A DNA stretch of 64,000 bases from the IMG/VR virus record IMGVR_UViG_3300042564_004737, one strand, 5' to 3'. This stretch comes from a virus (Duplodnaviria; Heunggongvirae; Uroviricota; Caudoviricetes). Position numbers and translations under genes: made by a program. The stretch's first letter is position 1, and each line of letters opens with the position of its first letter. Below the pieces are notes generated by a model. It had not been told where the DNA came from, searched no databases, and saw only the letters and a list, made by a program, of their open reading frames with translations. Positions 18,866 through 54,198 of this stretch are shown piece after piece.

Positions 18866-18870
18866 ATATT

Positions 18871-37483: not shown

Positions 37484-37944
37484 GACACTTCTGTTCTGCC
37501 GTCGCCGATGTCTCGTTGTTTAACCACACGACTAGGATTGTTGGCCATTTCCTGTTCCCAGGTTTCCATGACCACATGCCTGCAAACATTTTGAAACCAG
37601 CGATCCACTATGTCGGAATCTTTGTCATCGGGCCGACCTTGATAGCCTGCTCGCACCAGATTGGCCACAAACTTGTCATTCCAGTCCAGTTCAAATGCAC
37701 CCTGATGCAAGTTGTCAGGATCAATGTCCATGCTCAAGATAGCAACCCAAGGTTGTCCTTTTTCTGTAGCAATTTCTTTTTCAGTTTTGACTGGTGCTTT
37801 AGGTTTCTCCGTCCGGGGTTTCGGAGTTTCTGGCGCTGGCTTCTTTTTAAATCTATCAAAAAATCCCATTGTGTTTTCCTTTGTTATGCCAAACTTGTGT
37901 ATAGATGCTGCTGCAAGTTCAACTTGAACCCATTCTCTATACAA
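37480..37944 (-). CDS. hypothetical protein
   Basis: 154-aa ORF. Confidence 0.4.
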   Translation of the reverse strand: MYREWVQVELAAASIHKFGITKENTMGFFDRFKKKPAPETPKPRTEKPKAPVKTEKEIATEKGQPWVAILSMDIDPDNLHQGAFELDWNDKFVANLVRAGYQGRPDDKDSDIVDRWFQNVCRHVVMETWEQEMANNPSRVVKQRDIGDGRTEVS

Positions 37945-38759
37945 AACTGCCCCACATATTCATGATTGCGTTGGTTGTCAGCCAAGTTCAACAGCCCTGG
38001 TTCCCAAAAACTAATCACTTCATCCACAGTGCTGCGTTCAGCCATGGTTATTTGGCCTTTCTCTGCTCGCAACAATTTGATCTTCTGTGGAAAACTGTTG
38101 TAGACGTTCATTGGGCTACAGTAAACTTCCTTGTTGGGGTTGCGCTGTTTCCATTCAAATGCCCAGTCTGGAACTGTGTTGTAAGGTGATTCCGCATCGG
38201 CAGTTACAACAAACTTCAAACAGTCTGCACGGTCTAAAATAGTTTTACTGGGTGCAAGATACTTGACAGCCTTGCCATTCTTCTCAATGCATTTGGGCGA
38301 ACACACCAGTGTGACACCAGTAGGCACATCTGTGTCAGGTATGCCGTTGCTTTCAACCTGCACTGCTTTGTAGTGCAACAACTGTCGTTTCATCCATCCC
38401 GAGATGTTGTCTTGCAGCAAGGGTTCGCCGCCAGTCATTACCAGAACAACTCCGGGATAGTCGTTGCGATCCCGCACTGCCCACTCAGGCACTGGTTTGC
38501 CTTTGCTGACCCAAAAGTCGCGAATAGTTTCATGTGCCTTTTGTTCCAGTTCTGCATAGGTGAACACATCACCGTCATCAAAGAATGTGTCACAGAAACT
38601 GCAATCCAAGTTGCATTTGGCCAGTCGAATAAACAGTGCTGGCAAGCCAGCATAGGGTCCTTCACCTTGTAAGGTAAAGAACATACTGGTCACCATCAAG
38701 GTGTTTTCTTGTGCGTCTTTAAAGTACTTCTTGCCAATGATTTCGTTTGTTCCGAACAT
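37884..38759 (-). CDS. queE: radical SAM enzyme, QueE-like (7-carboxy-7-deazaguanine synthase)
   Basis: 'RLAKCNLDCSFCDTFF' matches QueE CNLRCxxCDT cluster motif; context with FolE/QueD/DpdA. Confidence 0.55.
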   Translation of the reverse strand: MFGTNEIIGKKYFKDAQENTLMVTSMFFTLQGEGPYAGLPALFIRLAKCNLDCSFCDTFFDDGDVFTYAELEQKAHETIRDFWVSKGKPVPEWAVRDRNDYPGVVLVMTGGEPLLQDNISGWMKRQLLHYKAVQVESNGIPDTDVPTGVTLVCSPKCIEKNGKAVKYLAPSKTILDRADCLKFVVTADAESPYNTVPDWAFEWKQRNPNKEVYCSPMNVYNSFPQKIKLLRAEKGQITMAERSTVDEVISFWEPGLLNLADNQRNHEYVGQFCIENGFKLNLQQHLYTSLA

Positions 38760-38767
38760 ATTATCCT

Positions 38768-39388
38768 TTACTTAAATCTTCCAAAAATTGCGCCGCTGTT
38801 TTGCCTGTATCCATCATTGTGCAAATGTCTATATCCTTGCAGCATTAGAAAAGGAATAGCAGCAGAGCACTTGCCAATGAAAACACCTTCTTGCGGATGA
38901 TACCAAGTGTCATCACATATGATAATGCTGTTGTCAGTCATCCTGTTCATCAACAAGATTGCCTGCAACAGGTGTGTTTGCTGACTATTTAGGTTGGTCA
39001 TCTCAATGTTCATTAAATCTCTATACTTCTGTTTGACACCGGCTACAAACCCTTCTTCTGCGCCACCCAACCAGTAATCCCAATCAAAGTTGTCCAGGTA
39101 TGCCAATGATATTTTAACTGCTGGGTCCAACTGTTGTAAAAATTCTTCGCCCTTGGCCTGTGCTAATTTTACATGATCTGGCAGTGTTCCGTCAACCATT
39201 AAATTGCTGGTTGCCCGTTTAATTTGTTCAGCATCCATATCTACACCGTAAAAATCCACCCCACGAGCTTGGCACAGATCCGCAAAGAATCGGGTACTGC
39301 CTTCGCCACGGTCCACTCCAATTTCGATCCAATGGCCGTTGTCAATTGTGTCAATGAATTTTGTTATGTTACGGTAATATGTTCCCAT
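38768..39388 (-). CDS. class I SAM-dependent methyltransferase-like protein
   Basis: 'WIEIGVDRGEGSTRFFA' motif-I-like. Confidence 0.4.
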   Translation of the reverse strand: MGTYYRNITKFIDTIDNGHWIEIGVDRGEGSTRFFADLCQARGVDFYGVDMDAEQIKRATSNLMVDGTLPDHVKLAQAKGEEFLQQLDPAVKISLAYLDNFDWDYWLGGAEEGFVAGVKQKYRDLMNIEMTNLNSQQTHLLQAILLMNRMTDNSIIICDDTWYHPQEGVFIGKCSAAIPFLMLQGYRHLHNDGYRQNSGAIFGRFK

Positions 39389-39872
39389 TGCCTGTTCCTT
39401 CAGTTATTTCCATCCATGTATGGTCACCCATGTATTTTACCTGTGACTGATACACATAATTATCGGGCGGCCCACTACTCCAGTCATTGGGTCCATGATG
39501 AACCAGCAGCATTTTTTCTTTGCGGCGGTCCCAGGCTAGCCAGTAACAGTTGCCTATCACCACTTGAAATTGATACTCTGCTGCATGCACTGCATCTGTT
39601 ACATCCAATCGGCGTTTGATATCCTGCGCTTGCTTTTCCAACACAGCAACCAACTGCATAATTCTATCATGTTCTTGCTGGGCATACATCCTAGCATGAT
39701 TGATCATTATGTCTTTTTGTTTGGTAACAGGAACCAGTTCAAATTTAGCACCACCTGCTTCAGTGCCATACGGCGTGACATTTCGATTGAAGAACGGAAC
39801 AATGGCACCATCTATATCTGCATCAAAGCTATTTCTACCTTTGGCAATATTAGATTTTTTTTCTTCGGTCAT
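39369..39872 (-). CDS. hypothetical protein
   Basis: 167-aa ORF. Confidence 0.4.
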   Translation of the reverse strand: MTEEKKSNIAKGRNSFDADIDGAIVPFFNRNVTPYGTEAGGAKFELVPVTKQKDIMINHARMYAQQEHDRIMQLVAVLEKQAQDIKRRLDVTDAVHAAEYQFQVVIGNCYWLAWDRRKEKMLLVHHGPNDWSSGPPDNYVYQSQVKYMGDHTWMEITEGTGNGNILP

Positions 39873-39885
39873 TGGTGTGTTACAT

Positions 39886-40296
39886 CTATCGCTTGCTTGG
39901 TGCTTTGAGTATACCCCAGACTCGGGCTTTTTCCAGCAGGTCTTGCTCCATTTCGCGGTAGCGTTCGCCCAGCTCTTTCAATTCTTTCCACTCTGATTCT
40001 AGTTGGGTGTTTGGTTGTAAAATGGCCAATCGTTCGTTTATGGCAGCCAGTGTTTTTGTCAAACTCTGGCCGCCAATCACAATATCAGCACCGGGTTGCA
40101 TTTCAATACCATTTTCGCTGATGCTCACTGTACCGGTACTGCTTGTACCAGAAACATTTTTCCATGGAGAAGTATTGATTGTAGAAGTATTGATTGTGTA
40201 GGGCGTTGTCATGTTACTGTCTAATGTGTACTCTGCCGACGACAGATCGATTGTTGACCAGTCTGAATCTACGGATAAGTTTTTTGGCAATTTCAT
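39886..40296 (-). CDS. hypothetical Ser/Thr-rich protein
   Basis: 136-aa ORF. Confidence 0.35.
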   Translation of the reverse strand: MKLPKNLSVDSDWSTIDLSSAEYTLDSNMTTPYTINTSTINTSPWKNVSGTSSTGTVSISENGIEMQPGADIVIGGQSLTKTLAAINERLAILQPNTQLESEWKELKELGERYREMEQDLLEKARVWGILKAPSKR

Positions 40297-40299
40297 TTA

Positions 40300-41106
40300 T
40301 TAAATCTTTCGTGCTTTGACCAACAGGTGCCAGCCTAGATACTCTCTGACAGCTTCTCTCATTGCAGCAGGCATGGCTTCAAACCACGGCTCCAGTTCAT
40401 ATCGGCCTTGCTTGTATGCTTGTACATTATACATGAAACAATGATCCTGCCGCAACCGCTCAATGTGAAATTGCGATCCCAACAGCACTGCAATATCATC
40501 TTTGGTATAGCTTTTGGCATAGGGACACCCGGCCTGTGCTTCGTATTGATCTAGACCTTTATTGATCATGGCCTGTTTCCAACTGTCACGGGCATACACC
40601 ATAAAACGGAATTCGCCACCGGGCTTGAGAGCTTGATGCACATTGTTGATAATTTTATCAATGGCAGGAAAATGATGTATAACACCGTAACTGTAGATCA
40701 AATCAAACTGCGGCAAGCCAATGTACATGTCTCGGTCGCTGGCGTCACCACAGTGGAAATTGCCGTCGAGTTCTTCAACTTCGAATCGTTTACGAGCAAG
40801 TTTGACACTTTCTTCACTGTAGTCTATGCCGTAATAGTCAGCACCGTGACGAGCAAACTCCGCAGCATCAGATCCAATACCTGGGCCAATTTCCAAAACC
40901 TGTTTGCCCTGCCAGAGATGAAAGCCGGCAAACTCCGGAATATGTGGCTCCACTTGGAATCTACGAGCCGATACTTCTTTAAAGAAATCTAAACTGCCAA
41001 TTTCATTTCCGCTGTGTCGAATGTTGCAAGGCTGATTGTTCCAGTATTGTTTGATGCGTTGTTCCAGTGTTGATGTCATGACTATTTCGCCCATACAGGT
41101 TTCCAT
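40300..41106 (-). CDS. class I SAM-dependent methyltransferase
   Basis: 'VLEIGPGIGSDAAEFARHGADYYGIDYSEESV' motif I/II. Confidence 0.7.
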   Translation of the reverse strand: METCMGEIVMTSTLEQRIKQYWNNQPCNIRHSGNEIGSLDFFKEVSARRFQVEPHIPEFAGFHLWQGKQVLEIGPGIGSDAAEFARHGADYYGIDYSEESVKLARKRFEVEELDGNFHCGDASDRDMYIGLPQFDLIYSYGVIHHFPAIDKIINNVHQALKPGGEFRFMVYARDSWKQAMINKGLDQYEAQAGCPYAKSYTKDDIAVLLGSQFHIERLRQDHCFMYNVQAYKQGRYELEPWFEAMPAAMREAVREYLGWHLLVKARKI

Positions 41107-41903
41107 TGAGCCATTTGGTTGTTCGTATCATTGGCTTTTAATTTTTCCCACGGATTTTGTTTGCCGGCAAACACTGCTTCGGCAAACGTGCAGTCTAGAC
41201 CTTGTGATTTCATGTATCCAACCATTTTGATCAAATCTGCCACTCGTCTATCATGCCAGAACTTGTGATGAAAGTCTCTAGGGTCAGTTGGATTACCTTC
41301 CAACATGGGCCGCTTTTCAAAAATTTCGTCGTTGTTGTTGCCGGTCAAATCAAATCTGTCGTGCGTTACATTTACTTCAATACGCTTCCATATATCAAGT
41401 ACATAGGCCTGTTGGCTGATCCATGCGTCACTGATTTGATGTGGACTTAGATATCCAAACATGTCAACCCACTTCCGTGGAACAATGGGAAAAATACTGT
41501 AGGGATGATCATTGTGTGTGTGAAATGCCAGCACTTTGAACTCACCGGTATGCGCAGCTATCACAGTGTCCCAGCCCTGGGTTTCCATAACAGCATCATC
41601 ATTCCAGAAAACCAACCAATCGGCATCGGCATGTCGTGCCAGCCCATTTACATATTCGTTTAGACGAATATATCCCATTGGGGCAAACACATGCGCTTGG
41701 TAGTTTACACCAAGTTGTTCCAATTCTGGTTGCAGTTCCGTTGTAAAATAGTCAACTGTTGCTGTGTCGTCATCATCAAATCCTATCAACACTTGAAACG
41801 AATCAACGTCATCTGCTGTATCAACTGCGCTGAGAATACTGCGCCTTAGTGCTTCTTTGCGGCCTCTAGTGGGCAACAGCAGTGATATACGGTATTCGCT
41901 CAT
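41082..41903 (-). CDS. GT-A fold glycosyltransferase (GT2-like)
   Basis: 'ISLLLPTRGR' N-terminal and 'GFDDDD' DxD-type acidic motif. Confidence 0.45.
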   Translation of the reverse strand: MSEYRISLLLPTRGRKEALRRSILSAVDTADDVDSFQVLIGFDDDDTATVDYFTTELQPELEQLGVNYQAHVFAPMGYIRLNEYVNGLARHADADWLVFWNDDAVMETQGWDTVIAAHTGEFKVLAFHTHNDHPYSIFPIVPRKWVDMFGYLSPHQISDAWISQQAYVLDIWKRIEVNVTHDRFDLTGNNNDEIFEKRPMLEGNPTDPRDFHHKFWHDRRVADLIKMVGYMKSQGLDCTFAEAVFAGKQNPWEKLKANDTNNQMAQWKPVWAK

Positions 41904-41911
41904 GTTGTTTC

Positions 41912-42463
41912 TTATTCAAATAAATCTTCATTCCACTCACGATGTCCTTCACGGAACGCCATGTTGGCTTGTGTTTCACGCACTTCCACACGATAGCACC
42001 ACAAGCGTTTGGATTCTGCCTGACCCCACATGTCTGGAATGTAAACACCATTGACATATTTGTACAGCTGGTCAGCCAGACCTTCGCAGCCTAGTTTGGG
42101 CAGAATAGTCAGTTTGGCCAACTTGCGGCGTTCCATTTCTTTGTAAAACGCCAGTTCAGGATCGTCCTCGGCCACCAATAAAGTGTGATCAAATTGACTT
42201 TCCAATATACCTTTGAGTTCTTTGAGACCTCCATAATCAGCAGCCCAGTTGCGAGCATCCAGATCATTGGTACCAAAGTAAAACTTCATGTTGAAGCTGT
42301 AGCCGTGTATTAGATTACAGTGACTGTCAGCACGCCATTGTCGATAGGCGCAGGGAAAAGAGTCGTGATACTCTTTGGTGCTGGTGTACCTATAGTTCAC
42401 TGGTCTAGTGTTTTGTAAGTTTTCTTCTAAATGACGGATTAAGTCCACTGATGAGTTTGCCAT
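41912..42463 (-). CDS. queD: QueD/6-pyruvoyl-tetrahydropterin-synthase-family protein
   Basis: 'SHCNLIHGYSF' resembles QueD 'CGRLHGHSF'; promoter TGCTATAATCACATAG at 42474-42490. Confidence 0.5.
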   Translation of the reverse strand: MANSSVDLIRHLEENLQNTRPVNYRYTSTKEYHDSFPCAYRQWRADSHCNLIHGYSFNMKFYFGTNDLDARNWAADYGGLKELKGILESQFDHTLLVAEDDPELAFYKEMERRKLAKLTILPKLGCEGLADQLYKYVNGVYIPDMWGQAESKRLWCYRVEVRETQANMAFREGHREWNEDLFE

Positions 42464-42538
42464 TATTTTTCTCCTATGTGATTATAGCATAGGTGGCAGA
42501 GTTTGTAAAGCGGGAGTGACACCAAGACCGCTATGTTT

Positions 42539-42931
42539 TTATTTATGGTAGTTGCCCTTGCCAGGAATGGTATTGCGTACACCTCCCACTGGGTCCTCAA
42601 CATCTCCGTGCCGTCTGGGAATCAAATGAACATGTGGCCACTCGACTGTCTGTCCTGCGGCACTGCCGTAATTCATACCAATATTGAATCCGTCACATTG
42701 ACCATTCTCAATCATGGTCTGTCCATGTATAATTGCATCGTTGAATGCATCCAGTACCACTGACATAGTATTGTGCTTGGGCACAAACAACAGGTGGCCT
42801 GGCGTACACGGATAACGGTCCTCGTACACTGCCACATGGAAGTCTTCTCTTACCAAACTTGTCCATGGAGCAGAACTATCCTCAATTGAACTTGGAATAT
42901 TTTCCGAAAATATGTGAGTTCTATGTTTCAT
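42539..42931 (-). CDS. HIT-family (histidine triad) hydrolase
   Basis: 'EWPHVHLIPRR' HxHxHxx triad. Confidence 0.65.
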   Translation of the reverse strand: MKHRTHIFSENIPSSIEDSSAPWTSLVREDFHVAVYEDRYPCTPGHLLFVPKHNTMSVVLDAFNDAIIHGQTMIENGQCDGFNIGMNYGSAAGQTVEWPHVHLIPRRHGDVEDPVGGVRNTIPGKGNYHK

Positions 42932-45144
42932 TATAAAGCAATCTTGTATTTCAAACCAATTTGGCCTGTGCCATCTTGGCCATATGTTGTTGATAAATTT
43001 AGGCTGTGATTGCGCACAGGTGCATAGTCAACACTGGCGCCAACAAAACCAGTGCGTTGGTTACGGATCTGATTGGTTGCGTTGCTGTAGTGCATGACTC
43101 CATCAGCATCAACACTGGTGGGAACTGTCAAGTTGACTGAGCCACTGGTCACAGTAGGCTTGAAGCCAGCATACAAGTTCACACTGTTGTTCCTCCACCC
43201 TGCTACAGCATAGGCACTGCGAATGTCAGACACGCGATTGACCATGGCGTACTGGTATTGGCCCGCAGTGTTCATAACACCTGCCTGTGCCCATGCACCC
43301 GAAGCGTCTGGGCTGTACAACATGCTGAATTCAGCAGTGGTGGAGCCTGCACTTTGTCCCCACATGCCAGAGAAGTTGACCCAAGGATTGTGTGCCACTT
43401 GTGTGACTGTGGCTTGATACTGCAAGGCTTGCCGATGAAGATCAAATGCTTGGCTGCTGACTCCCACACTGATGTTGGCACCCGTGCCACTGATGGTCAC
43501 ACCTCGGGCTGTGACTGAAGGACCTGCAAATTTACTGCTCCAACTTTGTCCCGCAGTCTGCTGCATGTGTTCCACAGGCTGCACAGTGCTGCCAGCAGCA
43601 GATGACAGGTTCACTGTGAAGTCTCGTTCAAAGCTGTCAACAGCCGACACAGCCGACAGCATGCTGGACACTGATGCATCCATCACACCAGCAATGGCCA
43701 AACCGCCGCTGAGTGGCCGCGCTGTGCCTGTTCGACCTGTGACTGAAACGCCCAGCGACCCCACTGGCTGTGTGGCCCTGTTGAGATCCAACAGCCCATG
43801 GCCCATTTGATCTGCGTTGTAGTTTTTTATGTTTTTATTGGCAGTTTTAAACAGCAGCTGAGCCAGCTGATCACCCTTCATGTAGGGCCACAACTGATGA
43901 ACCACAGCCACTGCACCAGATATGGCAGGTGCAGCAAAACTGGTGCCGCTGCTGGTTCGATATGCACCGTCTGCACCCACAGTTTCAATGGCCACACTGG
44001 GCGCCATCAAGAAGAAGTCTTTGGTGCGATAACTGTCTTGACACACCTGATTCACTGACACTTTGCAAATGTGTCCTGCACCGTTGCCCTCCACTGAGTT
44101 GGTGGTGGTGTTCCAGCCACCTGCAATAATCATCTGCCCATTCATCACTAGTCGGCCGTCTCGGCCCACAGCAGACGCAAACACCGCAGGCGACTGCACA
44201 TAGCCTAGGCCTTGATTGCCTGCGGCCACAACCAGCACCATTTGCTTGCCCAACACCGCAGACCAATCAGTTGGTCGTTCCAAGTTGTAGTAGTTGGTGC
44301 CACCGTAGTTGACATGGTTGCTGTAAAAAGTACCGTCAGCCAACCTGTAAACAGATCTGGTGTAGTCAGCGGCATAGTTCACATTGGAACTCAAGTTAGC
44401 CACCACAATGTCTGTGTACTGCTGTGCCCACACCAGTGCTTGACGAGCTGATGCCATGCTGACGCTATTACCCGTGCCAATCTTGGCAATGGCCAGATTG
44501 GCATCGTAGGCCACACCATGCATGCCTTTGCCGTCACGAGCAGCGGCCGCAATGGCTGCCACCTGGCTGCCGTGACCCACTGTGTCCAATATGCTGGTCT
44601 GTGTGTAGTCCACGCTGTATTTGATTTTTCCAGCAAACTCACTGCCAGCCACAGCAATGCCAGTGTCCATCACCATAATGGTCGAGCCCTTGCCAGTCCA
44701 GCCACGAGCATAGGCATAGTTGGCACCCGTGGCTGAGATTGTTTTGCCAGCCTCACTGGTCAAATACCAGCTGGGGTCAAAACTGGGCACTGCTGTAGGC
44801 GTGCCCATGTTGGGGTTGTTGTAGTAGGTGGCCGCGTTGAAATTGGCATCAAACACTAGCCTGGGCACAGTTGGGATCACCGCTGGAGTCACCGCTGGAG
44901 TCACAGTTGGGGTTACAGGCCGCGCAACAGATGCCACGGCGCCAACTGTTGTGGCACTGATTAGGTCCTTGGCTCGAAGCTTGTTGTTGATGTAGGTGTA
45001 TTTCCATTGTTGGTTAATCACCGTGCCATTGGGTTGTTTTACCATGGCAGTGATATACGCATAGCGAACTACATCAGCTGCTACTGCCAGCCCCATGGTC
45101 ATTGCCATCACGGCAATTGCAAAAAATTTCAATACTTTGGTCAT
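42931..45144 (-). CDS. secreted subtilisin-like serine protease (S8) with large C-terminal beta-rich domain
   Basis: signal peptide; catalytic triad blocks 'VMDTGIA', 'HGSQVAAIAA', 'GTSFAAPAISGA'. Confidence 0.7.
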   Translation of the reverse strand: MTKVLKFFAIAVMAMTMGLAVAADVVRYAYITAMVKQPNGTVINQQWKYTYINNKLRAKDLISATTVGAVASVARPVTPTVTPAVTPAVIPTVPRLVFDANFNAATYYNNPNMGTPTAVPSFDPSWYLTSEAGKTISATGANYAYARGWTGKGSTIMVMDTGIAVAGSEFAGKIKYSVDYTQTSILDTVGHGSQVAAIAAAARDGKGMHGVAYDANLAIAKIGTGNSVSMASARQALVWAQQYTDIVVANLSSNVNYAADYTRSVYRLADGTFYSNHVNYGGTNYYNLERPTDWSAVLGKQMVLVVAAGNQGLGYVQSPAVFASAVGRDGRLVMNGQMIIAGGWNTTTNSVEGNGAGHICKVSVNQVCQDSYRTKDFFLMAPSVAIETVGADGAYRTSSGTSFAAPAISGAVAVVHQLWPYMKGDQLAQLLFKTANKNIKNYNADQMGHGLLDLNRATQPVGSLGVSVTGRTGTARPLSGGLAIAGVMDASVSSMLSAVSAVDSFERDFTVNLSSAAGSTVQPVEHMQQTAGQSWSSKFAGPSVTARGVTISGTGANISVGVSSQAFDLHRQALQYQATVTQVAHNPWVNFSGMWGQSAGSTTAEFSMLYSPDASGAWAQAGVMNTAGQYQYAMVNRVSDIRSAYAVAGWRNNSVNLYAGFKPTVTSGSVNLTVPTSVDADGVMHYSNATNQIRNQRTGFVGASVDYAPVRNHSLNLSTTYGQDGTGQIGLKYKIAL

Positions 45145-45201
45145 TGCGGACCTCCTATATGGTTGGTTAAGTATTCATTATAACAAAAGAATATTTTATA
45201 G

Positions 45202-46052: not shown

Positions 46053-46068
46053 ATTATTTTCCTTTAAT

Positions 46069-46767
46069 TTAATTACCGTTTCTTGACTGAAGCAAGATAT
46101 TGTCAAAGAATTCCTTCTTTGTTCCTTTGTCGTCCTTGAATGCACCTTTGAGCACTGTGGTCTGTGTCAGACTACTGTGCGCCATTATTCCTCTATTGGT
46201 GCAGCAGCCATGTTCCGCTTCAAGATACACTGCTACATTGTCGCTTTCAGTTGCTTTGGAGATTTCTCGTGCAATGTCATTGCAGAGTTCTTCCTGTAAT
46301 GTACCGCGACGGGCACACCACTGAGCAATGCGAGTGTACTTGCTAAGACCAATAAGTTTTTGAGCAGCAATGATTCCGATATAAGCCACACCGGACACAG
46401 GCTGATGATGATGACTACACATACTACGAAGCTCACTTCTAACCACCAACATACCTTCGTAACGGTCTGCCGAATCATTTGGGAAAGCGGTTGCATCTGG
46501 TGCTGGTTCATATCTACCTGCCATAATTTCATTGAAGTACATTTTAGCAAGGCGGCGTGCTGTACCTTTGCTATTAGGATCATTCTCACGATCAATTAAC
46601 AGTGCATCGAGTACACCCTCAAACGCTACAGTTGCCTCTTCAATAAGATAGTTCTTGTCAAACTCATCTTTAACATACTCGCTGATGTTATCACCAGCCC
46701 AGAAACGCTTGTTGTCGGCTTGCATTCGTTCGCGAAGCACCTGTGCTAAATTTTTACTTGTGTCCAT
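46069..46767 (-). CDS. folE: GTP cyclohydrolase I (FolE)
   Basis: 'RSMCSHHHQPVSGVAYIGI' = FolE CEHH active-site block; start MDTSKNL with GGAG RBS. Confidence 0.65.
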   Translation of the reverse strand: MDTSKNLAQVLRERMQADNKRFWAGDNISEYVKDEFDKNYLIEEATVAFEGVLDALLIDRENDPNSKGTARRLAKMYFNEIMAGRYEPAPDATAFPNDSADRYEGMLVVRSELRSMCSHHHQPVSGVAYIGIIAAQKLIGLSKYTRIAQWCARRGTLQEELCNDIAREISKATESDNVAVYLEAEHGCCTNRGIMAHSSLTQTTVLKGAFKDDKGTKKEFFDNILLQSRNGN

Positions 46768-46832
46768 ACTTTTTCTCCGATGTTGACGCAGTGGATTGCT
46801 TTTGTTGATTGTATAGTATTTAGACTGCAAAG

Positions 46833-47447
46833 TCAATCTACTATGGTAATAGTTCTTAGGTCTGGGTAAGCGACATGCACAGGCACACAGCCTTGGTCCT
46901 TGATTCCTTCCAACATGGCCAGACCTTGAACAGCTTCTTCGGGCGTGGGCTTGTAGTGATATCCAACTTGAAATGTGTGTTGTGCTTGCCAGGGTGATGT
47001 ATTTAGGTCGCGTCCATCATAGCGTTGACGAATCATGATCTCGTATGCTGCTGGATCATCCAACAAGATGGCACCACCACGACCAATATGCAGGGGTTTA
47101 CCGTGTCCAAAACTCAAGCACTGCATGGCACCAGGTCGATACATGTTCTTTTCCAGTCGTCTAGCACTGTCCCAGATTCGAGTGTCATGAATGTGATACT
47201 CACCGGTCCAGACTTCGTTTTCCAGGCCGTACTTGATGCCCAGTTTGTGCATGGTCATGGCCACACTCAGATAGGTAAATGCTGTAAAACTACAGCTTCG
47301 TATCCGGTCATAGCGTAGACAAAGTTCGATGGCATGTGTGCAGCAATCGGTCATGATCACATAAGGTGCGCCGGTGAACTCTGCCAGCGCATGTTCAAAT
47401 TTTAGAATCTTATCAAACATGGGATCGATTGTACCAGGTCCATGCAT
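46833..47447 (-). CDS. hypothetical protein
   Basis: 204-aa ORF. Confidence 0.4.
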   Translation of the reverse strand: MHGPGTIDPMFDKILKFEHALAEFTGAPYVIMTDCCTHAIELCLRYDRIRSCSFTAFTYLSVAMTMHKLGIKYGLENEVWTGEYHIHDTRIWDSARRLEKNMYRPGAMQCLSFGHGKPLHIGRGGAILLDDPAAYEIMIRQRYDGRDLNTSPWQAQHTFQVGYHYKPTPEEAVQGLAMLEGIKDQGCVPVHVAYPDLRTITIVD

Positions 47448-48372
47448 GCGAAATCATGTCATGCAAAGTATGTTTTTGCCATGCGCCGTCCACAGCCATT
47501 CCAAACTTGGCAGCACTGGCAGTAAGTACGGGTGGATCGCCTGGTCGTGCCTGACTAAGTTGAACGACCGCAGCACTGCCAGTGACCTGTTGTGCTGTAT
47601 CAATGATTTCTCTGTTGCTGGTTCCGTTGTTGGATCCAAGATTGTATACGCCTGCTGTGACTTTTGAATCCAGCGCCATGACGTGTGCTCGGGCAATATC
47701 TTCCACATGCACATAGTCTCGTACACAGGTTCCGTCGGGAGTGGGGTAATCAATGCCGTTGAGCACAAATTCTGTACGGTCCCGAATGCTTTCCAGCACT
47801 CGAGCAATGATGTGTGTTGCCCCGGGCTCTTGACCGTGCCGGCCTTGGCTGTCTGCGCCACACGCATTGAAATAGCGAAATGCCACATAGTCTAGACCAT
47901 ATGCACGGTGATAACTTTCCAGGATCTGTTCCACCATCAGTTTGCTTTGACCATAGGGACTTATGGGTTCCTTTGGATCAACTTCATCACACGGAGTCAT
48001 AACAGGGTCACCGTACACTGCTGCACTGCTGCTAAAGATAAATCTGGTTTGCGGCATTGCAGCCATAACAATGTTCAGCAGGTTGAGAGTCTTGACCACA
48101 TTGTTGTTGTAGTAATCACTGGGACGCAGAATGCTAGGGCCAACCAAGCTGGTGCCTGCACAGTGTACAATGGCTGCGGGCCGTACAGAAATCAACTTGC
48201 GATAAGAGTCGTCGCTGTCAAAGTCTGCTTGTACAAAGTCCATAACGTCTTTGAGATGACTTGACAAGGGTCTGCGATCAATACCAACCACAGTGTGCCC
48301 TGCATCTTTCAACAACAGGGCAATTTCGCCACCAATGTAACCAGCAGCACCTGTTACTACAACAGTGCTCAT
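47413..48372 (-). CDS. NAD-dependent sugar epimerase (GalE/UDP-glucose 4-epimerase-like)
   Basis: 'VVVTGAAGYIGGEIALLL' and YxxxK-type SDR pattern, 319 aa. Confidence 0.7.
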   Translation of the reverse strand: MSTVVVTGAAGYIGGEIALLLKDAGHTVVGIDRRPLSSHLKDVMDFVQADFDSDDSYRKLISVRPAAIVHCAGTSLVGPSILRPSDYYNNNVVKTLNLLNIVMAAMPQTRFIFSSSAAVYGDPVMTPCDEVDPKEPISPYGQSKLMVEQILESYHRAYGLDYVAFRYFNACGADSQGRHGQEPGATHIIARVLESIRDRTEFVLNGIDYPTPDGTCVRDYVHVEDIARAHVMALDSKVTAGVYNLGSNNGTSNREIIDTAQQVTGSAAVVQLSQARPGDPPVLTASAAKFGMAVDGAWQKHTLHDMISHAWTWYNRSHV

Positions 48373-49571
48373 GATTCGATCTTTCTCACATGATATTTGT
48401 CTTGTGCCACATGATCACGATATCGATTGCCTGCACGATTCCATTGTTCGCCGCGGCCTTCAATGATATCAACCACACGATCAACTGTGCCGTTGTTCCA
48501 GTCGCTGATCAAGCCCATGTTGTGATGTGGTTCACGCAGCAAGTTTTGCATCTTGTGATAAGCATCATCTATGCTCCAGGGAACATAAAGTCGATTAGGA
48601 TCGTTTGCAAAAGTTTCAGGAAAGCTACGATAAGCAGGATAGAGCACATTAGCTCCAAGAGTGTCAGCTTCCGAGACGGTGTTGCTAACCCAGTCCTGTA
48701 AAGCACAATTGAACAATACACGAGTGTCATTGAGATGATCATAATATTCATTCTTGCTTATGTTGTCATAGATTTTTAACTTGCCGGCTGCTTCCATGGC
48801 TCTAGCACGGGTCACAAATTCAGGATTGTTGCTGCGCAATGCACCGCCGGAGTAGATGGCAAACTCACAAGGCTCCGTGGTGAGTTCACCGTACATCTCA
48901 ATCAGATCCATGAAGAAGCCCGGTTGTTTTTCTTGATCAAACCTAGCTGCAAAACCCACTCGACGAGGGCGTTCTTCAAATGGTCGGACTTTTTCCGCAC
49001 CGCCGATGCGTTCCAGTACTTCTGCCTTGCCGAACGCCAAGCCTGAGATGTTGTAGATAGGAGCAGTCCAGCCTGCAATACGCATGTGAGCAACCATTTC
49101 TTCGTTGGTAGCAAGCACACCTGTCACAAACTCATTGACCATTTTTTCATACAGGCCCATCCACTTTTCCATGCCCCATACATGAACAAAATCATCAGGA
49201 TCAATGGCCTGAGCAAGACAGCGAACATAGATCCTAGGACGCTGATCCGCATCCACTTGATCAAGAATATAAGGCAAGCTCTCGATACCGGGCTGAAACA
49301 TGTCTTCAAAGTAGATCACATCTTCACTTGTGACTTCTCCTCGGCGCATCATTTGCACAAGATTCATCATTTGGCTCATGCCAAAGTAACTGCGGCCGTG
49401 TGCATCCAACACCTGTCCCACGCTGATACTTTGTGTGTTGTCAATGGTGCTGCCTGGAACATAAACTACATCCAACCCTCTACGATCGAACACACGACGG
49501 TTCCATTCAGTCAGTTGTAGAGTGTACCTTGCTTCATACGACTCCAAACCACAATAAAATAGTTTTCTCAT
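48369..49571 (-). CDS. hypothetical protein (possible glycosyltransferase)
   Basis: 400-aa ORF, start created by GGAGTTGAAGAATGA overlap. Confidence 0.35.
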   Translation of the reverse strand: MRKLFYCGLESYEARYTLQLTEWNRRVFDRRGLDVVYVPGSTIDNTQSISVGQVLDAHGRSYFGMSQMMNLVQMMRRGEVTSEDVIYFEDMFQPGIESLPYILDQVDADQRPRIYVRCLAQAIDPDDFVHVWGMEKWMGLYEKMVNEFVTGVLATNEEMVAHMRIAGWTAPIYNISGLAFGKAEVLERIGGAEKVRPFEERPRRVGFAARFDQEKQPGFFMDLIEMYGELTTEPCEFAIYSGGALRSNNPEFVTRARAMEAAGKLKIYDNISKNEYYDHLNDTRVLFNCALQDWVSNTVSEADTLGANVLYPAYRSFPETFANDPNRLYVPWSIDDAYHKMQNLLREPHHNMGLISDWNNGTVDRVVDIIEGRGEQWNRAGNRYRDHVAQDKYHVRKIES

Positions 49572-50240: not shown

Positions 50241-50241
50241 G

Positions 50242-51108
50242 TTAGCATTTCTCCAATAAGTTGTAAAGTGTTCTGGAATCTGTTGGAAACGTATCTAGTC
50301 CATCACACCGTATTTCGTAACCAACTGCTCGTAGTCTCTGTTGCACAATAGCTTCTGCTATGAGGTTAATGGGTTGCCACTCCAGTGGTTGATTATTAAT
50401 AGAGCAATCAACTATACGATCTAACAAGTCAAACTCGTCTACAATGTATTGCTGTTTTTTTGTCCAATCAGCAATAAACAAATCAAGATCGCCGGTCGGT
50501 GTTAAATTAAGAAATTTAAAAATGCGTTTGAAAGTATTCTTAGTATCATACAGTATATCAGTATTGCACACTTTTAAATATGTATCGGGCGCTTGATGTT
50601 GTGACTCAATCCATTCCTGCACCCATGGAACATAAAACAAACTAAACCATTCTCGCAACTCCCATGACTGCATTTGGTCCCAGTGAGTATAATTTTGATT
50701 CCAGTTTACAATGTCATGAGTATTATTGTAACAAAAAATATCAAGGCCGAGGTTTAGTTTTTCACCAAACGCTATTTTGTGATATTGAAATAAAATATTA
50801 AGTTCGGCTGCTCGTAAGGAATCAGCATGTAGTATTATTGTGTTGTGTATGAGCTTATTGTTCAAAAACGCTTGTAGTATTTCAGGAAAATGTTGTTTTT
50901 TAAATGGATATATTGGGGTGGATATATCTACCACAGATTTTGGAGTTATTGATTCCATATCAGTTGGGTGAAACGCTTTTTCAAATGAATGCATAGATCC
51001 ATCCGACAACACTTCTCCATTGACCTTGTTGAATTTGTCTGTATACGACCTTAGCACAAATTCAACAGTTGATCCAAACATTCCTGGAACAAAAAATATT
51101 GTAACCAA
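50242..51108 (-). CDS. hypothetical protein
   Basis: 288-aa ORF. Confidence 0.4.
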   Translation of the reverse strand: MVTIFFVPGMFGSTVEFVLRSYTDKFNKVNGEVLSDGSMHSFEKAFHPTDMESITPKSVVDISTPIYPFKKQHFPEILQAFLNNKLIHNTIILHADSLRAAELNILFQYHKIAFGEKLNLGLDIFCYNNTHDIVNWNQNYTHWDQMQSWELREWFSLFYVPWVQEWIESQHQAPDTYLKVCNTDILYDTKNTFKRIFKFLNLTPTGDLDLFIADWTKKQQYIVDEFDLLDRIVDCSINNQPLEWQPINLIAEAIVQQRLRAVGYEIRCDGLDTFPTDSRTLYNLLEKC

Positions 51109-51111
51109 GAT

Positions 51112-51333
51112 TTAAATATTTCTGTTTAACCTACGAGCATCTTCGGCCCACATGTCACGAGCGTTTTTACCCTGCGTGAACTTGTTGTATTGCTGCCAGG
51201 CATAACTTTTGAAGTTATACAGGTCTGCTTCATTGTAACGATATCCAAAATCGCAACAAAATTCCAGAAAGGTTCCTAGTTCTTCCAGTGCTGCTGTAGA
51301 CTTGGGGTTGGCTTGTACGAGTTGTTTGGCCAT
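51112..51333 (-). CDS. hypothetical small protein
   Basis: 73-aa ORF. Confidence 0.35.
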   Translation of the reverse strand: MAKQLVQANPKSTAALEELGTFLEFCCDFGYRYNEADLYNFKSYAWQQYNKFTQGKNARDMWAEDARRLNRNI

Positions 51334-51372
51334 GATGTTTCTTTTTTAAAGGTTGATGAGATTTAAAAATTT

Positions 51373-51846
51373 TTAAATTTTTAAAGAGAGGTTAGGACGA
51401 GAAAGTTCATACTTGATCAAGCAGCCGTTTTCATTGTCTTCGGATACTTCAATCCACACAGCTCTGTCCGGATATCGCTGTGCAATCTGTATATATATGT
51501 CATCTGCGATCATCTCGCAACTTTTGTAGTCAAGGCTTAGAACGGAATCCGTATTATTGTTATTGTCGGTATGTTTAGGCCGGAACAGGTTTTCGAGCCA
51601 GCGTTTGAATTGGATGAACTCGATGTCCCGGTCATTATGGAACACATCGATCCACACCCTGAAATGAAAGATGTGGCGATGAGGATGGCCCAAAAACGAT
51701 ACATCATATTCATCTCCTGTGGCCAACGCTGGATCTGTCAGCGCCGCAGGGTATTTATGTATGCCTTCTTTTTGGAATGTGACCCAGACTTTGCGTTCGG
51801 CCTTTTCCACGATGCGATCTATTGCTTCTCGTTGTGCTTGTATCAT
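51373..51846 (-). CDS. hypothetical protein
   Basis: 157-aa ORF. Confidence 0.4.
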   Translation of the reverse strand: MIQAQREAIDRIVEKAERKVWVTFQKEGIHKYPAALTDPALATGDEYDVSFLGHPHRHIFHFRVWIDVFHNDRDIEFIQFKRWLENLFRPKHTDNNNNTDSVLSLDYKSCEMIADDIYIQIAQRYPDRAVWIEVSEDNENGCLIKYELSRPNLSLKI

Positions 51847-52133
51847 TTTTGTAGTAGTTCCATGGTTACAATTTTACCCACACTTTCAGACAAGTTTTCT
51901 TCTGGTGTGACAATATATAATTTAGAGCGACGATCCTCTGATTTCCTATGATAATAACTGGTTTCTATCAAGGTGCCGCCCAACACTGTTTGTATTCTAA
52001 AGGTTAATGGGTCTGACAATTCAATACTATCATCATCTCTGCTTCCTAGGGCATAGACTACATCGTTTTCTTGTAGATTGTGGTTGAAATCCCAACCCCA
52101 TTTCATCATTCTTGACCATAACCATCTAATCAT
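51843..52133 (-). CDS. hypothetical protein
   Basis: 96-aa ORF. Confidence 0.35.
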   Translation of the reverse strand: MIRWLWSRMMKWGWDFNHNLQENDVVYALGSRDDDSIELSDPLTFRIQTVLGGTLIETSYYHRKSEDRRSKLYIVTPEENLSESVGKIVTMELLQK

Positions 52134-52639
52134 TTTACTACCTCGTCTTTGTTGTACTGATCCCAGTCAGTGAATGCTGTGCGACTTTGTAATTTGTGTA
52201 CACTGTGACACCACACTCCAGGATTGGTAGCAGCAAAGTCTTTGTCGTCCAGTTTGAGTGTGGCGTTGTAGCCCAGCTGGCGTATGTAAGGCAGCTTGAC
52301 CGATATCATGGGAATGAAGTTGTGATGTTCGGTGAATCCGCTTTCTAACAAGCCTTCCACGGATTTGACATCTATGTCTAGGGTGCATAGATAACCTCGG
52401 TCTAGGAATGGTCCAATCATGTTCTCCCAGTCTAGCCAACCACGAGCATTGATGTCATAGTTGGGAAAACTCTGGTTGGCGCCAAAGTAGATGTGTTCGC
52501 AGCCTGTTAGGTGTGCAGCAATGTCATCCACTGACTGCACACCCACCACAAACAGAGTTTTCTTTCCCAATGCAGGAGTGTGTTCTACTTCTGTTCCAGT
52601 AAAGAACTTTACCGAATCGTCGTGATCTTTTCTAATCAT
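52130..52639 (-). CDS. hypothetical protein
   Basis: 169-aa ORF. Confidence 0.4.
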   Translation of the reverse strand: MIRKDHDDSVKFFTGTEVEHTPALGKKTLFVVGVQSVDDIAAHLTGCEHIYFGANQSFPNYDINARGWLDWENMIGPFLDRGYLCTLDIDVKSVEGLLESGFTEHHNFIPMISVKLPYIRQLGYNATLKLDDKDFAATNPGVWCHSVHKLQSRTAFTDWDQYNKDEVVK

Positions 52640-54198
52640 AAACCTAAATCTTCTTGAATTGCAATTCGATCGTCTATTGCTTGTTGTGATTGTACATTAT
52701 CATCGACCTCGTCGTCAACTGTTTCGAACAATGCGTTGAATTGTGAACGAGCGTTTTTGGCCTTCTTGCCTTTGAATCCGCGAGTGCCGACTATGTCCAT
52801 CCAATAACGATCGTACTGTTCAATGATGGCTTCTGCTTCTGCTCGATCTGGTGTAGCAAAGATTGCTTCCACAATGTCTTCAAACTTGGTGTAATCGCCA
52901 TTGGTGTCCCACATCATTTTGGGTCTTGATCCAGCATCAAATTCTCTGTTGGCCCGTTGCACTGATTCCAAATGTAACCACACATTATGACCCATCAACA
53001 AAGCATAGCTGAAACTGTCCCAACTTGTTTTGCCTTCTTTGCCAATCTTATTTAGGTCACCGGGTTTGTAATAACAAATATCTTTCATCTGCAGATGTTG
53101 GCTGATGGGACTTTCGTCGAATTTATCAACCAGGCCATCTGCCACCACTGCTTGTCCATACGGGCGTGTGTCTGTGCTGTACTTTTTGTCATCCGCAATG
53201 GGATTCATTCTGTAACTCCACTTGCCATTGTGTGGCAGCACAATCTCGTGATACACTTGACCATTGGCAGTGGCCAGGAATGGACTGGCACAATCAAAAG
53301 AAATGGTAAATTCTGGATTCACATACTTTCTAACTGCTCGCTGAATCACAGTCAGCAGCACGGCCCATTCCAACTTGCTGGTACCCAAAAAGTGCATCCA
53401 ATCGTGAATACCTGGTTGCAACAAATTGTCATGTCGCAATGCTACCAAACGCTTGAGCACCAAATGCACATCACACATGTTCTGTCCGCCCATGCTCCAG
53501 CCGTTGAAGTGAGTGTCTGGATACTTGACAGGATCGCAGTAGTCTTTCATTAGGTCGTACCAGCGATCAGCGTCGGCATGACTGGCACCCTGCAGAACAT
53601 TCAACACTTTCATGCCACCATTTTTAACACCTTTACGATGTTTCATAAAGTATTCGTTGTTGTATTTGGTAGCGTCAACTGCTTCTTGCAGTGTTTTGAT
53701 ACCGCACTTGTCGCTGGCATTCTTGTCATGAATAACCCAGGTAGGGATATCCAGAGTCATGCCGTATGTGGCAACACCGTCTAGCCATTTGAGAATAGAT
53801 TCGCGCTTCTTTTGTGCTTTGGCACAGCCCGAGTTGGCTTTCCAATCGCCTTCCCACAGACCTTTGGCAATCTGGAATCCACCCGAGTCGCCTAACACGA
53901 GTGTGCCAGGCTCACGATTACGAACCATATCCTCTGACCAGTCTGGTTTGGTAAGATCTAAGTTGGCGTGTCCACCTGAATACAGACTCCACCGATATGG
54001 AAACAATGCTTGCTGGCTGTTGAGCCAGTTCAGTTGTTCCATATCAGGAATACCTGCGGGCATACGACCTGGCTCCACATAGGGACCATTTACTGGATCA
54101 CGCTGCTTGCCTACAAAGGTGGCGTAGAATCCACTAATAGCCGGCAAAAATATGGCGTAATCTTTTTGCTTGGCTGTTAGATTGTCTTGTTCCATCAC
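52636..54198 (-). CDS. dpdA: tRNA-guanine-transglycosylase-family protein, DpdA-like 7-deazaguanine DNA transglycosylase
   Basis: 'TLVLGDSGGFQIAKG' = TGT catalytic DSGGFQ motif; 520 aa; co-occurs with FolE/QueD/QueE. Confidence 0.6.
   Translation of the reverse strand: MMEQDNLTAKQKDYAIFLPAISGFYATFVGKQRDPVNGPYVEPGRMPAGIPDMEQLNWLNSQQALFPYRWSLYSGGHANLDLTKPDWSEDMVRNREPGTLVLGDSGGFQIAKGLWEGDWKANSGCAKAQKKRESILKWLDGVATYGMTLDIPTWVIHDKNASDKCGIKTLQEAVDATKYNNEYFMKHRKGVKNGGMKVLNVLQGASHADADRWYDLMKDYCDPVKYPDTHFNGWSMGGQNMCDVHLVLKRLVALRHDNLLQPGIHDWMHFLGTSKLEWAVLLTVIQRAVRKYVNPEFTISFDCASPFLATANGQVYHEIVLPHNGKWSYRMNPIADDKKYSTDTRPYGQAVVADGLVDKFDESPISQHLQMKDICYYKPGDLNKIGKEGKTSWDSFSYALLMGHNVWLHLESVQRANREFDAGSRPKMMWDTNGDYTKFEDIVEAIFATPDRAEAEAIIEQYDRYWMDIVGTRGFKGKKAKNARSQFNALFETVDDEVDDNVQSQQAIDDRIAIQEDLGL

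Follow-up and report, generated by a model that had tools for sequence, protein, structure and literature searches.

The 64,000-nucleotide IMG/VR record IMGVR_UViG_3300042564_004737 (referred to as the window) represents part of the genome of a jumbo phage that has not been cultured, and almost all genes of the window lie on the minus strand. Between positions 37884 and 54198 it encodes a DpdL-type deazaguanine modification system that joins an apparently new clade of long-form DpdA-like transglycosylases, represented by a 520-aa protein, with a conserved pair of genes for a glycosyltransferase and the UDP-glucose 4-epimerase GalE. Modification of DNA with deazaguanines is a major counter-defense of phages. 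We know of eight deazaguanine derivatives in DNA, none of which carries a sugar. On balance, we lean toward the interpretation that this QueC-less module puts a deazaguanine into the phage DNA after replication and decorates it with a hexose.

An earlier note, made from the letters alone, had proposed that the 520-aa protein is a DpdA-like tRNA-guanine transglycosylase (TGT), pointing to its DSGGFQ motif and its location within a FolE/QueD/QueE module. Protein fold, profile alignment, and iterative searches all sustained this proposal, demonstrating that the protein is a TGT-superfamily enzyme. The DSGGFQ motif occurs just once in the six-frame translation of the window (positions 53872-53889, residues 104-109), compared with 0.0016 occurrences expected from the window residue frequencies. 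The AlphaFold (AF2) model of the protein had a predicted local distance difference test score (pLDDT) of 90.7. When this model was compared with the PDB with Foldseek, ranks 1-11 were all bacterial, archaeal, or eukaryotic TGTs (E values of 1e-6 to 8e-3, probability 0.99-1.0), followed by generic TIM barrels with E values above 0.04. The TM-scores of the TGT matches were modest, 0.37-0.52. Foldseek comparison with the viral structures in BFVD recovered transglycosylases of phages, among them R9TGF0 from Vibrio phage nt-1 (2.8e-9). R9TGF0 corresponds in position and length to VPFG_00171 (464 aa, between FolE and QueC) and is presumably the tested DpdA2 of nt-1, which was found experimentally to insert 7-cyano-7-deazaguanine (preQ0) into DNA (Cui et al. 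2023, PMC10516641).

Profile alignment with hhalign linked the 520-aa family to nt-1 DpdA2 (probability of 92.6% over 171 columns, with ~21% identity between the two proteins in those columns) and to E. coli Tgt (90.8%). The motifs DSGGFQ, LDIP/FDEC, VLQG/IIQG, GWSMGG/GYAVGG, HFLG/YLMG, and FDCASP/FDCVMP were in register. D104 and D302 aligned with TDSGGFQ and MFDCVMP of E. coli Tgt and with DSGGLQ and SYDSS of nt-1 DpdA2. Therefore, both catalytic aspartates are kept in the 520-aa protein. S74, D104, S105, G107, P152, H269, and D302 were invariant among 60-62 diverse family members. The features in common with bacterial Tgt (PF01702) are the TIM barrel, the DSGGFQ aspartate, the LD(I/E)(P/C) aspartate, (V/I)(L/I)QG, G(W/Y)xxGG, and the FDC nucleophile aspartate. 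Unlike Tgt, the 520-aa protein fails PF01702, has no CxCxxC zinc site, is ~140 residues longer, and is encoded in a replication block. In the segment relevant to the 7-substituent pocket, GGQNMCD takes the place of GGLAVGE.

Failure to match TGT-family hidden Markov models (HMMs) had been named in the earlier note as a result that would count against a TGT, and the protein did not match PF01702, even at E<=1, or any other model in Pfam, PHROGs, NCBIfam, or PADLOC. However, the test is not a valid one. DpdA2 of nt-1, which is validated, DpdA3 of Cellulophaga phage phiST, gp123 of Acidovorax phage ACP17, and the DpdA of Xanthomonas phage X1 fail the Pfam TGT model as well, and therefore HMM failure of the 520-aa protein is uninformative. 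PADLOC had no model that matched any tested protein, including nt-1 DpdA2. Neither phmmer nor a 60-sequence profile yielded a meaningful match for the 520-aa protein among all PDB sequences, and tblastn of phages with E. coli Tgt recovered bacterial-type tgt only and no phage DpdAs. Standard sequence-only annotation is blind to this clade.

Iterative searches connected the clade to recognized TGTs. An HMM of the 520-aa family matched the TGT-like protein of a metagenomic contig (L015) at 6.7e-20, and the L015 protein passes PF01702 (28.0 versus 26.3 bits). Searches that started from nt-1 DpdA2, X1 DpdA, ACP17 gp123, or the L015 protein converged on one set that holds all 80 lineage homologues of the 520-aa protein, and E. 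coli Tgt joined this set when the search was seeded from the Pfam-positive protein; the E values of these searches refer to a small local database. The family is large: clustering at 50% identity gives 927 clusters, and of the clusters formed at 90% identity, more than 6,877 scored E<=0.001; identity to the 520-aa protein of the window was 75-93% among the best 120 of the latter. An exact-sequence look-up found no record of the window's protein, and a 100% identical copy is encoded on one IMG/VR contig. BLAST-level similarity to nt-1 DpdA2 or phiST DpdA3 was not found, and the hhalign match to DpdA3 was weak (77.8% over 82 columns). From these comparisons, which cover DpdA2 and DpdA3, the family looks like a separate DpdA-like clade. 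In Vibrio phage 2.275.O, the homologue of the 520-aa protein adjoins QueF, QueC, Gat, FolE, and a YhhQ-like gene.

Gene neighborhoods were compared in 80 IMG/VR loci around DpdA-like homologues (>=59% identity) and 80 loci around QueE homologues. Presence is counted over the loci that had enough flank for the gene in question; the flank of 10 kb restricts the numbers for QueD, HIT, and GT-A (Table 1). The order downstream of the DpdA-like gene was nearly invariant: DpdA, the 169-aa protein, DpdL, GT-B, GalE, mini-DegT, FolE, HIT, QueD, and GT-A, with a methyltransferase sometimes following GT-A. The stretch FolE-HIT-QueD-GT-A(-methyltransferase) was present in 9 of 24 loci. Distant relatives have a compact version in which PolB, the clamp, and DpdA are followed by GT-B, the 169-aa protein, DpdL, GalE, and FolE in varying order, and then by QueE, a 154-aa protein, and FEN. 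The homologue of the clamp in Sinorhizobium phage Phosso is annotated as a sliding clamp, and the position of the clamp is the same in PA5oct and Vibrio phage 2.275.O. The 169-aa partner protein matched no family, even at E<=1; its homologue in ACP17 is gp122, encoded directly upstream of the DpdA of that phage.

Table 1. Genes of the predicted modification module and its borders (strand as in the window; presence in related loci as defined in the text)
Feature	Coordinates	Strand	Evidence and position	Related loci
Family B DNA polymerase (PolB)	55939..58596	-	PF03104/PF00136 on homologues; upstream module border	76/80
Probable sliding clamp, 240 aa	54195..54917	-	Always between PolB and the DpdA-like gene	78/80
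Divergent TGT-superfamily transglycosylase (DpdA-like), 520 aa	52636..54198	-	Predicted catalytic Asp104 (DSGGFQ) and Asp302 (FDCASP)	
Partner protein, 169 aa	52130..52639	-	Always directly downstream of the DpdA-like gene	61/62
DpdL, QueD paralogue, proposed 7-carboxy-7-deazaguanine decarboxylase	51373..51846	-	phrog_17812 at 2.9e-33	52/52
GT4-type GT-B glycosyltransferase, 400 aa, candidate deazaguanine decorator	48369..49571	-	Pfam matches of homologues; structure	39/40
UDP-glucose 4-epimerase GalE	47413..48372	-	TIGR01179, 294.5 bits versus 262.3 cut-off; PF01370 at 6.4e-57	32/34
Half-size DegT-like pyridoxal phosphate (PLP)-type protein (mini-DegT), 204 aa	46833..47447	-	PF01041 at 2.5e-14	26/30
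GTP cyclohydrolase I (FolE)	46069..46767	-	PF01227 at 3.5e-39, 134.5 bits, above cut-off; phrog_2197 at 2.4e-44	23/24
HIT-family protein, frequent module member	42539..42931	-	PF01230 at 3.4e-08	15/24
QueD-like 6-carboxytetrahydropterin synthase	41912..42463	-	PF01242 at 1.6e-13, above cut-off; phrog_2389 at 3.7e-35	17/24
GT-A-like glycosyltransferase, in a subset of relatives	41082..41903	-	phrog_14945 at 2.5e-12; PF00535 only 0.021	9/24
Class I S-adenosylmethionine (SAM) methyltransferase after GT-A, in a subset of relatives	40300..41106	-	PF13649 at 1.8e-18; phrog_22502 at 3.1e-63	16/80 (QueE loci)
QueE-like 7-carboxy-7-deazaguanine synthase (radical SAM)	37884..38759	-	phrog_2076 at 1.6e-44	
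5'-3' exonuclease/RNase H (FEN)	35142..36149	-	PF02739 at 5.5e-20; downstream of QueE; downstream module border	80/80 (QueE loci)

The predicted pathway for supply of the base is the QueC-less, DpdL-type branch, ending at 7-carboxy-7-deazaguanine (CDG) or 7-deazaguanine, that is known from phiST. All of the open reading frames (ORFs) named in the earlier note were present where it had placed them, on the minus strand, and its assignments of FolE, QueD-like, and QueE-like proteins were borne out by family HMMs. For the QueE-like protein, the five NCBIfam QueE models gave E values from 5.9e-18 (TIGR04322) to 3.9e-09, all scoring below the equivalog cut-offs; the cluster motif CNLDCSFC is readable in its sequence. 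The QueD-like protein has CNLIHGY, a CxxxHGY variant of the signature CxxxHGH, and this His-to-Tyr exchange was found in 51 of 52 lineage homologues. Compact relatives that have no QueD and keep only DpdL raise the question of which protein makes 6-carboxytetrahydropterin (CPH4).

DpdL, which the earlier note had not recognized, was named by Cui et al. 2023 as a QueD paralogue and proposed CDG decarboxylase in which LxxxHRHxF replaces CxxxHGH, and it occurs in phages with DpdA, FolE, QueD, and QueE but without QueC (PMC10516641). The DpdL of the window has the fitting motif LGHPHRHIF at residue 52, the same motif type is present in 82 of 98 lineage homologues, and the phiST motif is LSLNHRHLF. 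In tblastn comparisons the protein was 32.6% identical to phiST CGPG_00067 (E value of 7e-7) and 53.8% identical to ACP17 gp125 (5e-36). Heterologous tests of CDG decarboxylation by DpdL failed, and ACP17 DpdL plus DpdA gave no deoxy-7-deazaguanine (dDG) in E. coli (PMC10516641).

Scans of 51 window ORFs with Pfam, PHROG, and NCBIfam found no QueC, in agreement with the earlier note, and its absence is explained by a DpdL-type pathway. The accompanying claim that the module supplies preQ0-type bases has to be revised: without QueC and with DpdL, the branch ends at CDG or 7-deazaguanine. A PP-loop ATPase that the earlier note had counted with the system (15795-16931) does carry the SGGTDS motif. 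However, it matched no family and no PDB entry, lies 21 kb away, was present in 3 of 80 related loci, and was not linked to the cluster proteins by iterative search; it was rejected as a QueC substitute. X1-type clusters (contigs L014, L015, and L017) encode a PP-loop protein of the PAPS (phosphoadenosine phosphosulfate)-reductase family, with 171-179 aa, two to three genes upstream of GT-B. A conceivable role for this protein is activation of the CDG carboxylate; none like it was detected in the window.

The glycosyltransferase is identified through its homologues and its structure. PF00534 was matched by 22 of 29 aligned homologues (best, 7.2e-15), and the homologue family of phage X1 carries precomputed PF00534/PF13692. 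An AF2 model of the window protein (pLDDT 82) had 315 PDB Foldseek matches at E<=1e-3, the top ones being BshA, MshA, PimA, PglA, and glycogen synthase at 5e-12. The motifs NRFDxEKRP and (I/S)EA are conserved, identity was 87-95% among the best 120 of at least 7,988 cluster representatives, and the protein is under strong purifying selection. The adjacent epimerase passed the TIGR01179 equivalog cut-off, as expected from the GalE-like assignment in the earlier note, and GxxGxxG and YxxxK are readable in its sequence. GalE is likely the supplier of the sugar donor, and its location next to GT-B suggests that the donor is of the UDP-galactose type. A T4-like DNA glucosyltransferase was rejected as an identity for GT-B: the T4 alpha- and beta-glucosyltransferases were not among the best 50 Foldseek matches listed. 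The T4 enzymes, too, are phage GT-B enzymes that decorate a modified base after replication with a UDP-sugar, but their acceptor is hydroxymethylcytosine.

Judging from gene neighborhoods, the GT4 glycosyltransferase specifically accompanies DpdL-type clusters and does so in at least six phage lineages that are unrelated to one another. In PA5oct, GT-B (EST35_0317) is encoded between the DpdA-like protein (EST35_0316) and DpdL (EST35_0318), and in ACP17 it is gp124, between DpdA (gp123) and DpdL (gp125). The gene order is GT, DpdA, DpdL, QueE in Xanthomonas phages X1/BUDD and DpdL, GT, FolE, QueE in Phosso. The family is also found in the Que/DpdL clusters of the T4-like cyanophage BUCT-ZZ01 and of three large metagenomic contigs (L015-L017), and a homologue with 65.6% identity is encoded by a phage of Synechococcus elongatus PCC 7942. 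In a reciprocal survey that was seeded from X1-type glycosyltransferases alone and covered 41 independent viral loci, DpdL was within 8 kb in 35 loci, FolE in 30, QueD in 23, and QueE in 22, and a recognizable TGT-like ORF was present in 15, often directly downstream.

The Que cluster of BUCT-ZZ01 (L013) also has an annotated xanthine-guanine phosphoribosyltransferase between QueE and QueD (7093-7554) and a second GT4-like protein (9010-10353, PF13692 at 3.4e-5). From the phosphoribosyltransferase, a nucleotide-level, prereplicative route may be suspected in that phage.

It is also possible, although we consider it rather doubtful, that the phage makes a plain DpdL-type deazaguanine (dDG, its 7-carboxy counterpart dCDG, or similar) without a sugar, and that the sugar genes serve another target, such as a different base in the DNA, a protein of the virion, or a glycan of the host envelope, their adjacency reflecting the accumulation of cargo. 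For example, phiST makes dDG with FolE, QueD, QueE, DpdL, and DpdA3 and no glycosyltransferase. Like the window, phiST has FolE, QueD, QueE, the LxxxHRHxF form of DpdL, a TGT-superfamily inserter, neither QueC nor QueF, and a cluster beside its DNA polymerase (Cui et al. 2023, PMC10516641), but its inserter has 259 aa rather than 520 aa, and it has no GT-B, GalE, or 169-aa partner. Moreover, the DpdA-QueE interval is a clear insertion hot-spot, and 7-deazaguanine does not have an obvious acceptor at C7. However, the GT-B family occurs almost only with DpdL and Que genes, as the 35 of 41 glycosyltransferase-seeded loci attest, and it stays beside DpdA/DpdL in lineages that are otherwise unalike (the T4-like cyanophage, the Busanvirus ACP17, Xanthomonas X1, a 469-kb rhizobiophage, and PA5oct), which would not be expected of random cargo. 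Furthermore, the window showed no hydroxymethylase that would make a pyrimidine available as acceptor, and the thymidylate synthase is ThyX.

How much of the region belongs to the module was evaluated from the same loci. The earlier note had described a sugar- and amine-tailoring cluster of about 25 kb. Pfam confirmed its class I methyltransferases, PIG-L, HIT, ferredoxin, peroxiredoxin, radical SAM, DegT, SDR (short-chain dehydrogenase/reductase), and FkbM proteins, but most of the named tailoring genes were present in only 0-3 of 80 related loci and are mostly variable cargo. The "25 kb cluster" is a conserved core of ~9-16 kb with variable cargo inserted. The part of the sugar-tailoring claim that stands is the syntenic GT-B and GalE core, shared by about 95% of relatives and often with mini-DegT, GT-A, and the methyltransferase, whereas PIG-L, the SPASM enzyme, ferredoxin, and peroxiredoxin are sporadic. 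Among the 80 QueE loci, PIG-L, DUF6492, a 239-aa ORF, a 272-aa ORF, and the S8 protease were each found once, the SPASM enzyme twice, ferredoxin three times, and peroxiredoxin never. Ferredoxin, peroxiredoxin, S8 protease, a GIY-YIG gene, and a 288-aa ORF occupy the DpdA-QueE interval in various relatives.

The sugar genes at 0.4-5.9 kb, which the earlier note had also connected with tailoring, are not part of the core either. DegT (369-1487) was present in 0 and FkbM in 1 of the 80 QueE loci, and all 21 matches of the SDR (1417-2412) fell on the GalE ORF and were thus cross-matches. These three genes, PIG-L, DUF6492, the 239-aa and 272-aa ORFs, and the SPASM enzyme were rejected as core tailoring genes on their phyletic pattern.

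Other genes illustrate the turnover within the module. A 737-aa secreted subtilase (42931-45144, minus strand; PF00082, with an N-terminal signal-like sequence) interrupts it, and at the same position relatives encode unrelated secreted proteins of 815-845 aa, one of them with FG-GAP. The differing secreted proteins at the same spot indicate a variable cargo slot. Two tandem DUF6071 paralogues (SGNH-like, GDSH motif; 36159-37483, minus strand) lie between QueE/154-aa and FEN and were found in 54 of 80 related loci. These are the two of the four SGNH-hydrolase paralogs in the earlier note that match a family; the other two match none.

Starting from the observed enzyme families, fold, conserved catalytic residues, and conserved synteny, a pathway for hexose-decorated deazaguanine in DNA can be proposed. 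The module is inserted in a replication block (PolB, the clamp, and, at the other end, FEN/RNase H). On the basis of pathway knowledge and the family assignments, FolE would convert GTP to dihydroneopterin triphosphate (H2NTP), from which QueD would form CPH4 and QueE would form CDG. DpdL would then convert CDG to 7-deazaguanine, an activity that the literature proposes and that is putative also in the type member. After replication, the DpdA-like enzyme of 520 aa most likely puts the deazaguanine in the place of guanine in the double-stranded DNA of the phage. GT-B, fed with UDP-galactose that GalE would make from UDP-glucose, may attach a hexose to the deazaguanine; the acceptor would be the free base, ahead of its insertion, or the base once it is part of the DNA. 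In some relatives, the GT-A glycosyltransferase and the methyltransferase may extend the decoration. Candidate acceptors are N2, as in huimycin, or a C7 carboxyl or amide if DpdL is no decarboxylase; C-glycosylation at C7 is another candidate.

Precedents exist for sugars on related bases. Queuosine in eukaryotic tRNA carries galactose or mannose, and the vertebrate step uses glycosyltransferases. In huimycin biosynthesis, the GT4 enzyme HuiG N-glycosylates a 7-deazapurine, and in both huimycin and dapiramicin, GT4 and methyltransferase enzymes decorate 7-deazapurines (bioRxiv 10.64898/2026.04.15.718813). The likeness to the phage module is one of enzyme class, a methyltransferase and a GT4 enzyme that decorate a 7-deazaguanine scaffold; huimycin and dapiramicin differ in that they are secondary metabolites of actinomycetes, that their scaffold is preQ0, for which QueC is needed, and that no transglycosylase takes part. 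The gene associations, these precedents, and the failure of ACP17 DpdL plus DpdA to produce dDG together support glycosylation. We tentatively suggest, with less confidence than for the module as a whole, that the final product is a glycosylated 7-deazaguanine (for example, a galactosyl or other hexosyl form of dDG, dCDG, or the 7-amido derivative dADG) made by a five-part core of long-form DpdA, the 169-aa protein, DpdL, GT4, and QueE.

Several observations weigh against decoration of a deazaguanine in DNA with a hexose. The sugar-on-base step is argued from guilt by association and from precedents. Plain 7-deazaguanine has no obvious O- or N-acceptor at C7. GT-B of the window itself had no Pfam match above threshold and no family hit of its own, and the alignment, as read by eye, suggests that, of the usual GT4 EX7E pair, its first Glu has been lost. 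In the stretch that was examined, phiST, RHph_I1_18, and Bakedbeans encode DpdL but no GT-B. Therefore, GT-B is not obligatory, and DpdL clusters come in two forms, with and without it. The zinc-binding CxCxxC...H of TGT/DpdA is not conserved in the 520-aa family, again in an alignment read by eye. What remains of the site in the 520-aa protein is C375 (DIC) and H404-N405 (GHN), and the homologue in Vibrio phage 2.275.O has CQN for HN. Finally, this phage encodes all four tRNAs with GUN anticodons, the possible targets of a transglycosylase: Asn(GTT), in two copies, Asp(GTC), His(GTG), and Tyr(GTA).

An enzyme inserting a deazaguanine at position 34 of these tRNAs or of their host counterparts, with the glycosyltransferase producing a queuosine-like glycosylated base comparable to the eukaryotic galQ and manQ, is an improbable explanation for the module. 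In its favor, these tRNAs are among the 30 of the window, the best solved structural matches of the 520-aa protein are tRNA enzymes, and queuosine glycosylation in vertebrates uses glycosyltransferases. Yet the zinc subdomain that the tRNA enzymes have is not conserved, the gene has a fixed place in every lineage, with the polymerase/clamp on one side and primase or FEN genes on the other, and ACP17- and X1-type clusters are likewise in replication blocks. The nearest tested viral structural relative, nt-1 DpdA2, acts on DNA. It shares the TGT fold and a Que cluster and is the closest functionally tested viral relative, but nt-1 differs in having QueC and ArcS, in making preQ0 and G+ derivatives, and in having no adjacent glycosyltransferase. 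Furthermore, PA5oct, with the same DpdA-like protein, GT-B, DpdL, and QueE, was reported to have DNA that resists restriction enzymes with G in their sites and is attacked by nucleases that sense modified G. The location of the module within the replication block, the resistance of PA5oct DNA to restriction, and the activity of nt-1 DpdA2 lead us to infer that DNA is the substrate of the 520-aa enzyme.

A very remote alternative is that FolE, the QueD-like protein (of the 6-pyruvoyl-tetrahydropterin synthase [PTPS] type), the SDR, and GT-B make a glycosylated pterin, comparable to the cyanobacterial tetrahydrobiopterin (BH4) glucoside, as an auxiliary metabolite without connection to nucleic acids. 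The enzyme classes match, a BH4 glucosyltransferase (5ze7) is in the Foldseek list of GT-B, and the Synechococcus phage homologue of GT-B would fit. However, the SDR is GalE by equivalog cut-off and not a sepiapterin reductase, and QueE and the TGT-fold enzyme, which have no role in the synthesis of a pterin glycoside, are fixed in the module. GT-B was rejected as a BH4 glucosyltransferase, with 5ze7 only at rank 45 and no closer than dozens of other GT4 enzymes.

The proposed DNA hexosylation can be evaluated directly in cultured phages: PA5oct, ACP17, X1, BUCT-ZZ01, and Phosso. The Pseudomonas jumbo phage PA5oct (Wroclawvirus) shares with the window, in the same order, the DpdA-like protein (36% identity), GT-B, DpdL, QueE, the clamp, PolB, and FEN. 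It differs in that GT-B directly follows DpdA, in the absence of a full GalE, mini-DegT, HIT, and GT-A, and in that the genes are annotated as hypothetical. Iyer et al. 2021 stated that PA5oct has a "deazaguanine synthesis/incorporation system," and therefore its transglycosylase may already have been recognized. A full-text literature search found no report of glycosylated deazaguanine in phage DNA and none on the base chemistry of PA5oct, X1, ACP17, Phosso, BUCT-ZZ01, or Motura. Glycosyltransferases are not mentioned by Cui et al. 2023, in which "glycosyl" occurs 0 times (PMC10516641). The analysis defines a large, highly conserved TGT-fold clade that standard annotation libraries miss entirely, and it draws attention to a glycosyltransferase that was overlooked in the published analysis of DpdL clusters.

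If the glycosylation proposal is correct, glycosylated deazaguanine would be a new class of DNA hypermodification, widespread in freshwater jumbo phages and present in PA5oct, ACP17, X1/BUDD, Phosso, and BUCT-ZZ01. Hexosylated deazaguanine would be the modified G of PA5oct, a therapeutic-candidate jumbo phage, and would explain why DpdL and DpdA alone gave no dDG in E. coli. It would also clarify the role of DpdL and provide new enzymes for site-specific glycosylation of DNA.

The window comes from a freshwater jumbo phage that is abundant, uncultured, and related to PA5oct. Megablast against 50,697 phage records found no close DNA relative of 37884-54198. Metagenomes from JGI, ENA, and Tara contain thousands of near-identical homologues of the proteins encoded in the region, and the contigs concerned are 290-360 kb long. 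A MoxR AAA+ ATPase (11433-12518) and a metallopeptidase-vWA protein (8846-10162) are encoded on the minus strand; such a pair together with a family B polymerase is typical of "group 2.2" jumbo phages (PMC7824862).

Between PolB and the clamp, a 344-aa protein (54951-55985, minus strand) weakly resembles class I methyltransferases (PF08241 at 0.005) and matches phrog_4752, "tRNA methyltransferase," at 2.8e-4. It has this position in 70 of 80 relatives and may be an additional nucleic-acid modifier.

A TctC-like periplasmic binding protein (13642-14463), a TctA-like permease (14473-15798), and a porin-like outer-membrane protein (17152-18054), all on the minus strand, were assigned by eye. The TctC-like ORF had no Pfam match at E<=0.01, and a relative carries PF03401 TctC. 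The TctC family and a GC content of 45% may indicate a freshwater betaproteobacterial host.

The RNA genes of the window are the 30 tRNA genes, a GOLLD RNA, and a permuted transfer-messenger RNA (tmRNA). The full-length GOLLD RNA (22768-23232, minus strand; RF02032, 197 bits, E value of 3.5e-54) lies within the tRNA array and encloses a tRNA-Asn (23095-23169); it is consistent with a lake-phage origin. At the end of the array (18.8-29.2 kb), the permuted tmRNA (18564-18847, minus strand) matched RF04321 at 89 bits and was called by ARAGORN as a tmRNA* at 18473-18878, with the tag peptide ANANTGEVTVSGKNVKFSARTAQRHSLAV.

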